This document shows positions 36,128 to 40,142 of a stretch of DNA of 64,000 nucleotides, piece by piece. The stretch covers positions 37,510,001 to 37,574,000 of the forward strand of contig OZ287759.1 of NCBI GenBank assembly GCA_965649765.1, in the 5' to 3' direction. This stretch comes from Bispira polyomma. Taxonomy: Eukaryota. The notes beneath the pieces were generated by a model. That model saw nothing but the letters and a program-made list of their open reading frames with translations. It was not told the DNA's origin and made no database searches. How positions within the stretch are numbered: the stretch's first letter is position 1; each line of letters opens with the position of its first letter. Made by a program: the position numbers and the translations under genes.

Positions 36128-36133
36128 CTGAAA

Positions 36134-37777
36134 TTACACAGATAAGGCAAGGTCAAAGTACCTTATAGGGACCTCATTCCATTTATAACAATTTTGTAAT
36201 TTAACAGTTAGCTCTGCAGTAGGAGGTTTATCTGAAAATAGTCTAGAAAGCGCATCTGCAATCACATTATTTTTCCCTGGAATGTGTTGTATGTCAATTG
36301 TGATGTCATGTGTGGCTGCACGCAGCCAGATATTCCTCAAACATGAGGCCAGAAAGTCATCCTTAGTTTTTTGTGAATTCACAACCAGTACTACGGCCAT
36401 GTTGTCACAGTGAAACAAAACCCGTTGATGCGCCCACTTTAACGCCCATACACGCAACGCGAGAATGATATTCAGCATCTCTAAGTGAACTATTGTCAAC
36501 TCTCTGCCAAAAACATTGAAATATGGTGTAGCGTACACCTCATCTTTCCACACGCCTCCTAAACCGGTAAGGCAAGCGTCTAAATGTAACTCACTCATGT
36601 TTTGAATCATAGGATGGTCAATGAAAGTTACTCCGTTAAATGTCTGTAAGAACTGCTTGAACCATGCTAAGTCGTTCCGCATGTCTTGAGAAATAGCAAA
36701 TTTCTTCTTACCCTCGTTGTTTCTAAATGCGTGAAGCAGTCTATTAATAAAAGTGCGTGCCGGCTTGACGCATTTGTGCACATACAGAAGTTTCCCTAAG
36801 AGAGACTGAAACCGGCTACGCGTTATGAAGCGCCTGTTAAACACGTCGCATACACAATCAAGAATCTCTTCTATTTTCCCATACTGGATGCTAATAGTAC
36901 CAGCGACAGTGTCAATGTTAATACCCAAACAAGTAATGCTAGTACTAGGTGGGGTGCGTTTGTTGGCATTCATGGGGAGACCTAAATAGTCTAGCAGTTC
37001 GGTCAAAATCTGAAAACCCCTGTGAGCCTCTACTCTATTGGAGACGCAAATGTAATCGTCGATGTAGCAGAACATATTGAAACCGTTTTTGCGCATATAT
37101 GACGCTATTGCGTCAGAGCAGCGTTGAAACACCGCGCTGCCATGAATCCAGCCAAACGCCACCGCAGGATCTATGTAACTACCCTCTTCAAACTGGATTC
37201 CTAATTTTACAGCGTCGACAGGATCTACACGCAAATTACGGAAAGCGCGAGCTACGTCGATTTTAAACAATACCGGATCATCTGTGACTTTGACCGCACT
37301 AGTAATATCATCGATTGTAGGAAATTTCAGAATAAATTTTTTCCCATCAAACATATTCTTATCAACATTCTCATTAAGCGAATTGCCTTGTGGGTATGAG
37401 AGGTTAAGAATTACCCTATGACTAGTAATGTCCTTGGGACGTGTGAGAAGTGGTGAACAATGGTAATGTGAGGAGCTAACCTCCTTCACTGGGCCCAACA
37501 TGGCACCCTTATTACTTTCTTTAACCAGATATTCTCTCACACTACTTGTGTGTTGGAGGGCAGAATAATGATTGGTAACAGAGGCATTGTTAAGCATTTC
37601 TGGATTGGTGAGAGAAAGAGGAAAGCCGAATCTAATGTACTGACACAGCAACTGATCAGGATAATCTTGGAAAACTTCATCCCATGCATCTGGATTAAGT
37701 CCTGACACCAGGGGAACCCTTGCTTGTCTATAATTGGGAAGTGCAGTGTCTCTGATCACAGAAGCCACTTGCAGCAT
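36134..37777 (-). CDS. RT + RNase H of element 2 (547-aa open frame)
   Basis: RVILNLSYP, KIDVARAFRNL, AFGW, YIDD, LDACL, HLEMLN, HCDN, NVIADALSR. Confidence 0.95.
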   Translation of the reverse strand: MLQVASVIRDTALPNYRQARVPLVSGLNPDAWDEVFQDYPDQLLCQYIRFGFPLSLTNPEMLNNASVTNHYSALQHTSSVREYLVKESNKGAMLGPVKEVSSSHYHCSPLLTRPKDITSHRVILNLSYPQGNSLNENVDKNMFDGKKFILKFPTIDDITSAVKVTDDPVLFKIDVARAFRNLRVDPVDAVKLGIQFEEGSYIDPAVAFGWIHGSAVFQRCSDAIASYMRKNGFNMFCYIDDYICVSNRVEAHRGFQILTELLDYLGLPMNANKRTPPSTSITCLGINIDTVAGTISIQYGKIEEILDCVCDVFNRRFITRSRFQSLLGKLLYVHKCVKPARTFINRLLHAFRNNEGKKKFAISQDMRNDLAWFKQFLQTFNGVTFIDHPMIQNMSELHLDACLTGLGGVWKDEVYATPYFNVFGRELTIVHLEMLNIILALRVWALKWAHQRVLFHCDNMAVVLVVNSQKTKDDFLASCLRNIWLRAATHDITIDIQHIPGKNNVIADALSRLFSDKPPTAELTVKLQNCYKWNEVPIRYFDLALSV

Positions 37778-37818
37778 GTCTTCTACTGTTTCAATTCTCT
37801 TAACAGGTTTGTCAGGAC

Positions 37819-38863
37819 CTATGAATGTGAATGCTGTTGAGAAAGTGCCAAGAAACCCATGGTTTTCTCGGGGTCATTAAAGTCCTTAGTTTCTTTGTAC
37901 AAATCCTTGTTTGCTCGAACACTATCAACCATTTGAGTGAATTCATTGCTCGACGAGTTCATGTATATTTTATCACAAATCAGACTGTTTACAGTCTCAC
38001 TTGGTTTTTGTGTACTTACATTTGACAAGTCTGCACAATTGTCTGACTTATGGCAATTGTCAGGTGTTTCGTCTTCACTGTCACTAATAAGTGCATCTAC
38101 TAACCGGGTCATGTATTCAGTATAATCAAAACCCAACTGCTTGAAACAGGCATTATCTCTTTCGAAATAATAAAATGTATCAGCAGCTTGCTTGATCACA
38201 GCCTGTAGTATTACTGGTAGTATTTAAAGAAACAGCCTGAACCTGGATTATGGTTTGAAAGGTTTGAAAAATACAAAGGTTTTGGCTAGGTGGAAATTCA
38301 ACACGAGCATATACACACTTGGCAGCAGTCACGTCATGAAACATGTGGAAATAACCTGAGAATTTTCCATCCCTATCCCTAATGTAAACAATTGGGGCCA
38401 AATTTTGAATTTCCCCACAAAAAGTTTTCCAATTGGTAACTGATACCTGACACGTGTGTGCCTCTTTGTTCCAAGCTGGTGAATTAGCATAGTGACTGCT
38501 CCCATTTGAAATGCAGGCCTCAGTGCTCCTGTCCCATCTATGGTGACCCGACTGGGTCCTGCTCTGAAATTGAATACATTCATTTACATTCTTGGTTTCA
38601 TACTGGTAGTTGTCGCCAGCATCTACTGAAACTGCAAAATTATTAAAGACATCATTATCAACAAAGTTCACCTTTATATCAGTGTTGAATACATTATTGA
38701 CAAACCTTGTACTATCTGACATTATCATCTGCTGATAATCATTACTGTTGGAACTTTGCACAATTGTATTAATTTCAGACATGCTTCTGTCGCAATAACC
38801 TAATTCACTGTTTTTGTCCTTTATATTAAACTCTTTTACAAATTTACTGTTACCGTTCATCAT
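37819..38863 (-). pseudogene. Probable N-terminal extension of element 2 pol (227-aa and 126-aa overlapping ORFs)
   Basis: The ORFs overlap near 38190 and join the RT frame by a one-base shift near 37835 (MGFLALS.. / AFTFIGPDKPV), matching YGYLPLS..PIDRAV in element 1. Confidence 0.6.
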
Positions 38864-38924
38864 TGAATTACCCTTATCACTACCTAATGTTCGTCCAACT
38901 GGTTGTGAATCGTGGCCCTAGATG

Positions 38925-40142
38925 TTACCTTGTTGTTTGTCTACTTACATTCGCTTTAAAGCATTTGAACTCTGGGTGCGACGCGTCCTTTCCTAATGTC
39001 TTATTACAAAACCAACATACATGACGATAATTGCCATGATCCGCCTTGTGAGTACACTTGCCATTATTAAACAGCTTACAGATGGATTTACTATCTGAAG
39101 AAGCCCCGTTAGCCAAGTTACTGCCATTGTTGCCTACCATAGCCATCTGGGAGGCACTGATGCGATTCAGTGCCCACTGAGTGTTGTCCTGCCAGGACAG
39201 CCTGCCTTCCTCGATCTCATGCATACTGACAGCCCAGCCTGTCCTGACAGCAGGCCACGGAAGTGTGGCTGCATCCCGTAGTGCGTGTACCACTTGGTTC
39301 ACCATAGCTTTCATTGTTGCCGGATCACTTACTTGTAGCGAGTTGGCCAGCTGGCCAGCCGCCCACTGCGGCAACGTGAGGTCGTCAAAGACTGGCCTTC
39401 GACGAGTCGATCCCCCACCCCAACCTTCGTTAGACCATCTGAGTTGGGGATCAGCTAAAGTAATGTCTGTGGAGTTATAACGACCAGACTTCTGCCTGAT
39501 TGAGTGCTTACCCTGGACTAGACCCCTCTGGGCCAAGGCTTCGTAGTCAGCCAGCTGCCTGGTAACGGCCGCCTGCACGTTTGGAAAAGATCTTAATGCA
39601 TCGAGACTGGGGACAATGCCATCTGTGTTGTAACCCTGACCTGTTGGTGGTTGCATCATAGGTTGAGCCAGCGGCTGCGCGACCCCGTTGTACCTGGGAG
39701 GGGGAAGAGGTAACGAATAACCCTCGTGTCTCTGTTGGACCACCGTACCATCCCTCATGGTGTGTAATGGAGAATTAGCGGGTGTAACTGTCTGTTTGTC
39801 CTCTACGAGTTGCAATCGCCGGGTTATGTTAGCGTTGGAGGTCTCCAAACCACGCAGGATGGAAAGAACCTCGGACATGCTTTGTGACTCGACTTGTGAC
39901 TGGGGTACGGCCTGAGATGAGAGCCCGGCTTGGCTAGATGATCCATTTGAACTGGTCAATAACTGAGAATCAATAAGAGGACACGCAGTGTCGGCAATGA
40001 CTGTTCTATGTATTTCTGATTGATCGTGAGTATTAGTAGTAGTTACCTGACCAGTACCCCTTTTCTTGGCTGTACTAGTTGAAGTTGTCTTTGTGGTCCG
40101 TTTCTTGCTGCTTAACACAGGAGTTGCTTTTGTTTTCCCCAT
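38925..40142 (-). CDS. gag of element 2
   Basis: Uninterrupted ORF; KSGR...W...FDDLTLPQW...PW motif block and C-terminal zinc fingers (CKLFNNGKC..H..HVCWFC..H...C). Confidence 0.9.
   Translation of the reverse strand: MGKTKATPVLSSKKRTTKTTSTSTAKKRGTGQVTTTNTHDQSEIHRTVIADTACPLIDSQLLTSSNGSSSQAGLSSQAVPQSQVESQSMSEVLSILRGLETSNANITRRLQLVEDKQTVTPANSPLHTMRDGTVVQQRHEGYSLPLPPPRYNGVAQPLAQPMMQPPTGQGYNTDGIVPSLDALRSFPNVQAAVTRQLADYEALAQRGLVQGKHSIRQKSGRYNSTDITLADPQLRWSNEGWGGGSTRRRPVFDDLTLPQWAAGQLANSLQVSDPATMKAMVNQVVHALRDAATLPWPAVRTGWAVSMHEIEEGRLSWQDNTQWALNRISASQMAMVGNNGSNLANGASSDSKSICKLFNNGKCTHKADHGNYRHVCWFCNKTLGKDASHPEFKCFKANVSRQTTR

Follow-up and report, generated by a model that had tools for sequence, protein, structure and literature searches.

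Several retroelements reach a 3′ open reading frame (ORF) by splicing. The env mRNA of retroviruses and errantiviruses and the spliced pol mRNA of foamy viruses do so by removing most of gag-pol, and env mRNAs of the mouse mammary tumour virus (MMTV) and Rous sarcoma virus (RSV) type keep a few Gag or leader codons. Subgenomic splicing of the Ty1/copia kind is exemplified by Drosophila copia. For Ngaro retrotransposons, a −1 frameshift between RNase H (RH) and the tyrosine recombinase (YR) has been called probable (Poulter and Butler, 2015, as quoted in a passage of PMC13003380). The present analysis concerns Ngaro element 2, which occupies positions 40453 to 33749 (minus strand) of a 64,000-nucleotide (nt) window of the Bispira polyomma genome (contig OZ287759.1, positions 37,510,001 to 37,574,000). 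It bears on how YR retrotransposons express a recombinase ORF that lacks a start codon, for which that same passage guesses frameshifting. Comparison of element 2 with its relatives argues, with a probability that we put at about 85%, that splicing produces a subgenomic mRNA from which YR is made joined to the first ~210 residues of Gag.

Element 2 carries gag, reverse transcriptase (RT)/RNase H and YR in this order on one strand, together with split direct repeats in the arrangement A1 ... B1 A2 B2 (a 217-nt A pair and a 154-nt B pair). Its pol frame ends shortly past RNase H, and in five of five long pol frames Pfam matched only RT and RNase H, with no methyltransferase match. Gene order, split direct repeats and the lack of a methyltransferase match fit a Ngaro element. 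A DIRS1-like or PAT-like identity was rejected, as no methyltransferase was matched, the repeats are direct and the ends lack an inverted pair. Frameshifting indels near 38941, 38205, 37840, 35872-35877 and 35313 make this copy defective, so the question concerns the family rather than the single locus. Its recombinase reading stops after 89 residues, compared with an open YR frame of 323 codons in siblings. About 50 copies in the same genome match the YR N-terminus at 92% identity or more, which indicates a young family.

Candidate splice sites and their conservation

The gag ORF opens with an ATG at 40142 on the minus strand and, after 631 coding nt (210 codons plus 1), contains the phase-1 donor CAGG/GTAAGC, where the slash marks the splice boundary. 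The acceptor, GTAATTTCAG/GT, ends the predicted intron at 36128, 6 nt past the RNase H TAA, and is phase 1 in the recombinase frame. The 3384 nt from 39511 to 36128 have the GT...YAG ends, consensus context and matching phase of a U2 GT-AG intron. Past the acceptor, the frame is that of the recombinase, in which Pfam places a SAM-like integrase N-domain at residues 19-77. Upstream, the same frame is open for just 9 codons, and its first in-frame Met is residue 79, downstream of the SAM-like domain. An earlier note on this DNA had described a YR frame without an ATG near its start and two phase-1 sites whose use would join ~210 Gag residues in frame to the recombinase; the missing ATG and all the coordinates hold. 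Nine of the 78 GT sites in the element 2 gag fit the U1 consensus equally well or better. The sites of element 2 alone do not go beyond chance, and it is their conservation that does.

Conservation was assessed at 82 loci, comprising 80 stretches of the same genome around YR matches, picked for diversity and open frames, and the two Ngaro elements of the window. A YR protein anchor was present at 78 of them (L041, L080, L096 and L101 were left out), which group into 23 families at an identity threshold of 85%, and into 12 at 75%. Gag identity to the element 2 copy falls to 18% among families. The acceptor test took a YR protein motif as its anchor and allowed four codon-spaced positions. All 23 family representatives and 71 of 78 copies proved to have a phase-1 AG at the corresponding position. 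For the two remaining phases the count was 0 of 23 each, and among shifted windows it was 90 of 460. The automated pick took a neighbouring AG in two families, in both of which the homologous site is also present. T stands at −5 and −6 in 22 of the 23 representatives, and the spacer between RH stop and acceptor ranges from 6 to ~40 nt across families.

For the donor, four of the 23 families were left out of the count (two without gag in the stretch, L081/L082 with the site deleted, and L086 with the site present off-frame). G/GTA is found in all 19 assessed representatives, with G at +5 in 17, and a phase-1 G/GT lies 3 to 12 codons ahead of the KSG motif in 58 of 65 copies. Of 360 other glycine codons in Gag, 122 are GGT, and 29 of these have A as the next nucleotide; the donor motif occurs in 406 of 5496 control windows. 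All four codons serve for the glycine of the KSG motif, a few codons from the donor, and the donor glycine is followed variably by K, M, T or I while the nucleotides stay fixed; constraint thus acts on the nucleotides and not on the protein alone. The columns flanking the donor are scrambled across related families.

Splicing could be real with the sites paired differently, the acceptor being joined to another donor (for example in the 5′ leader) or the gag donor to another acceptor. We regard this as the least probable of the alternatives. The pairing of donor and acceptor is inferred from phase alone, and other gag GT sites score equally well, both of which leave room for it. With a noncoding leader, on the other hand, the first ATG available to YR would be that of residue 79, beyond the SAM-like domain; within the 15 codons before the KSG motif, the part of the element surveyed for donors, the predicted donor is the only conserved one; and every lineage that yielded the two sites has them in phase 1.

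The predicted pair of sites recurs in other organisms. Of four loci in Joint Genome Institute (JGI) assemblies, three hold near-full elements, each with a phase-1 donor and a phase-1 acceptor, and the predicted introns measure 2597, 3185 and 3441 nt; on the fourth, a short contig, the acceptor is present. Relatives from ENA and Logan contribute evidence at the protein level only. Among outside Gags with a KSG-type motif (52 of 94 matches), 48 of 52 have a glycine followed by a residue with a possible A-start codon, a pattern seen in 22% of background windows. Among outside YRs that reach the acceptor site (23 of 120), 22 read I-[S/V/P]-[G/D], which is what a phase-1 AG would give. A single-query metagenome scan and a viral scan returned no matches. 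Whether donor and acceptor are conserved and phase-matched was a check that the earlier note had set; both are, across very divergent families and in other organisms.

Alternative routes to the recombinase

The published suggestion quoted above would place YR in a Pol-YR polyprotein, made by programmed −1 frameshifting in the short RH-YR overlap; where the frames agree, stop readthrough could make it instead. YR lies in the −1 frame relative to RH in 18 of 23 families, and a slippery heptamer occurs in the −1 overlap of three of the 21 assessable families. In the element 2 family, however, the 16-nt overlap contains no slippery site; five of the 23 families, from two lineages, have YR in frame 0, and one family has no overlap. 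In the outside locus L111, 334 nt separate the RH stop from the acceptor, with stops in all three frames. Given the in-frame families and this spacer, a −1 frameshift from RH to YR cannot be general. Such a frameshift also accounts for neither the conserved AG nor the donor, and we consider a Pol-YR polyprotein very improbable. Fungal Ngaro YR can lie in either frame (PMC3783388).

Translation of YR on its own, by termination and reinitiation at a start near or overlapping the RH stop (AUGA or near-cognate) or from an internal promoter, carries the largest of the small probabilities that we assign to alternatives. An in-frame ATG lies upstream of the acceptor in nine of the 23 families, in two of which it overlaps a TGA stop, and the start codon of 14 outside YR calls overlaps the presumed RH stop. 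An ATA codon, a TGA stop and the 6-nt spacer are enough by themselves to produce the AUGA overlap. Fourteen families, that of element 2 included, have no such ATG, and its position varies from −69 to −114; reinitiation would also leave the conserved gag donor unaccounted for. The earlier note had named a YR ATG of its own or a pol-YR frameshift signal as findings that would speak against splicing. No RH-YR frameshift signal is conserved across families, and on this point splicing comes through; the in-frame ATGs of nine families, although at unconserved positions, keep it from doing so fully on the other.

Unlike the RH-YR junction, the gag-pol junction keeps recognisable recoding signals. In 14 of 14 copies examined of the element 2 clade (including L033, L040, L051, L064, L094 and L100; window ~38920), gag stops at TAG, the next nucleotide is G and pol is in frame with gag; this UAG-G suggests readthrough into pol. 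Two other families have A AAA AAC in a −1 gag-pol overlap, and three outside elements have an in-frame TGA; judged by these signals, the lineage has switched its mode of gag-pol recoding. The idea of a second donor at the gag stop was rejected as a general feature, as only UAG-G is common and GT follows in some families only.

Beside the slippery heptamers, the upstream ATGs and the outside start-codon calls, several points weigh against a spliced Gag-YR mRNA. It is a prediction from DNA sites, the donor of the element 2 copy is of ordinary strength, and the copy itself is broken. The families share descent, so their counts are not independent, and the representatives were chosen partly for intactness. 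In the element 2 family, the 49 paired gag-YR matches (of 54 YR matches) include no retrotransposed copy that lacks the intron, the shortest gap being 2289 nt. Spliced RNA would retain all terminal repeats, yet no such copy exists in this set, which implies that the spliced RNA is rare or poorly copied. Poor copying could perhaps stem from a packaging signal inside the intron.

Other searches were neutral. The 36127/39512 joint is not among the 15 joints listed of 42 in contigs from three sequencing runs with DNA-like even cover, a result that bears neither way. In protein databases, no Gag-YR fusion occurs among three long YR matches, a Gag-N word search came back empty, and none of 94 Gag-N profile matches contains a YR match at E<0.1. 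The entries look like unspliced gene calls on genomic DNA, in which a fusion would not be expected. [quoted passage not shown] On balance, site conservation, phase and the absence of a shared alternative signal support the Gag-N-YR fusion by splicing that the earlier note had put forward, and element 2 is a member of an ordinary element class whose expression route is probably undescribed.

The predicted fusion and its proposed role

An AlphaFold model of Gag (mean predicted local distance difference test (pLDDT) 59.5; 17 sequences) has a helix at residues 86-116 and, ahead of the donor, further helices at 180-209; residues 206-214 form a linker modelled with low confidence, beyond which come a folded helical domain and the zinc fingers. 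Because the donor falls in the linker between domains, the splice would cut at a domain boundary. The earlier note had expected the fusion to omit the Gag zinc fingers. They would indeed be omitted, but the loss would be wider and take in the whole folded C-terminal Gag domain, while the predicted coiled coil would be kept. A capsid fold query with this low-confidence model gave a best Z of 5.4, to unrelated helical proteins, and no Foldseek match at E<=0.001.

Modelled as three copies, Gag residues 80-211 form a coiled coil over 85-117, with a score of 0.47 against 0.00 for the best control. The trimer runs share at least 17% of contacts, at pLDDT of at least 41. In a calibration with two copies, 21 of 30 solved microbial pairs and 17 of 29 eukaryotic pairs attained the mark for self-association, as did just one of seven pairs without an older solved relative and none of 23 single chains. 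The model supports self-association of the retained Gag half through the predicted coiled coil, with the reservation that a coiled coil may pass because it resembles solved ones. In L092, L097, L098, L103, L109, L111, L113 and L114, Gag starts with a CxxC...H...C cluster, which may be a zinc finger and would remain in the predicted fusion.

The proposed expression scheme has two kinds of RNA. Unspliced RNA would give Gag by plain translation, would serve as the genome, and would give Gag-Pol by stop readthrough (UAG-G in element 2) or −1 frameshifting (in other families). From a share of the transcripts, the host spliceosome would take out the 3.4-kb intron to produce the Gag-YR mRNA. The retained coiled coil could then co-assemble with full-length Gag and so bring the recombinase to the site of complementary DNA (cDNA) synthesis, with the rate of splicing determining the amount of recombinase. 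If splicing is granted, we lean slightly towards a coiled coil that recruits YR to the Gag complex and a splice rate that sets its amount. For the scheme as a whole, in which a widespread animal Ngaro lineage makes Gag by translation, Pol by readthrough or frameshifting and YR by splicing onto the Gag coiled coil, thereby loading it into the Gag assembly, the odds seem to us about even.

If the scheme is true, the real Ngaro recombinase is a Gag fusion of 500-600 residues and annotated YR ORFs are N-terminally incomplete, which changes the definition of the active enzyme and is relevant to recombinase biochemistry. The host could also switch integration on or off through one splice, a possible control point for DIRS-order elements. 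The scheme offers a route by which an integrase outside the Gag-Pol polyprotein could reach its cDNA. Many families would be concerned, since the same genome holds thousands of first-look YR candidates.

Layout of the locus and comparison with known systems

Table 1. Annotated and predicted features of Ngaro element 2, and of the second Ngaro element, in window coordinates.
Feature	Position	Strand	Remarks
A1 split direct repeat (5′ end)	40237..40453	-	217 nt, 99% identical to 34779-34995
gag (ORF1)	38925..40142	-	405 aa here, 3′ end changed by indel; siblings 410 aa + TAG
Predicted exon 1, coding part	39512..40142	-	210 codons + 1 nt
Predicted coiled coil in exon 1, Gag residues 86-116	39795..39887	-	AlphaFold helix, self-association model, alignment pattern conserved
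Conserved helix pair, Gag residues 180-209, ending just ahead of donor	39516..39605	-	alignment and AlphaFold
Predicted 5′ splice site, phase 1	39506..39514	-	intron start 39511; G/GTA in 19/19 assessed representatives, 58/65 copies
Predicted 3384-nt intron (Gag C-domain, zinc fingers, all of pol)	36128..39511	-	splicing inferred from sites
pol (N-terminal extension, RT, RNase H)	36134..38917	-	broken here; siblings have one 928-933 codon frame
Predicted 3′ splice site, phase 1	36126..36133	-	intron end 36128, 6 nt past RNase H stop; 23/23 representatives, 71/78 copies
Tyrosine recombinase exon	35163..36127	-	frameshifted near 35872-35877 and 35313; RHRY-type motifs in alignment
B1 repeat	35002..35155	-	AATAAA at 35085 and 35049
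A2 repeat	34779..34995	-	pairs with A1
A2-B2 spacer, 876 nt	33903..34778	-	shared by siblings; longest open frame 82 codons
B2 repeat (3′ end)	33749..33902	-	154 nt, 100% identical to B1
Second Ngaro element of the window, distant family	20626-26640	-	Gag ~26% identical to element 2
Predicted phase-1 intron of second Ngaro element, 4377 nt	21597..25973	-	donor 25973, acceptor 21597

Several observations on layout stand beside the features of Table 1. The noncoding spacer between A2 and B2 is a feature of the family, and several siblings (e.g., L003, L008 and L011) end directly after B1, as recombination between B1 and B2 would produce. The N-terminal extension of pol is long (the first ~500 residues in L033; window 37874-38917), has no Pfam match and differs greatly between families. 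In the second Ngaro element, the corresponding N-terminal region of pol contains about five degenerate repeats of ~108 nt (24172-24752). The RH-YR spacer of L111 (L111:3618-3951) is rich in pyrimidines and contains another AG/GT-like site; it may represent an insertion or an extra exon boundary.

Elsewhere in the window, positions 1606-3968 on the plus strand hold endonuclease and RT frames, which by their motifs we take to be typical of a long interspersed nuclear element (LINE). A 315-codon open frame on the minus strand (7968-8915) has ankyrin-like repeats by eye and is possibly a host exon. The segments 43046-47967 and 51961-56783 are a duplication with a period of ~9 kb and 91-99% identity, and 49181-49644 and 52983-53494 form an inverted pair ~3.5 kb apart.

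Compared with Ngaro as described (Goodwin and Poulter, 2004), element 2 shares the gene order, the split direct repeats, the lack of a detected methyltransferase and, in most families, the small −1 overlap between RH and YR. It differs in the 876 nt between A2 and B2 and in a conserved gag donor and post-RH acceptor that predict a spliced fusion, as opposed to the frameshift proposed in the passage of PMC13003380. The splicing of Ty1/copia elements, as described for Arabidopsis EVD (PMC5580714), is similar in that a single transcript yields full-length and spliced RNAs, which set protein ratios, and in that splice signals are conserved across families. There, however, the spliced RNA gives Gag alone, whereas that of Ngaro would skip pol and add an integration enzyme to half of Gag. 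With retroviral env and foamy virus pol, the predicted Ngaro mRNA has in common that a 3′ ORF is reached by splicing. In Ngaro, by contrast, this ORF encodes a tyrosine recombinase. About 210 codons of gag precede the donor, which sits at a domain boundary, and a predicted oligomerisation helix would be kept.

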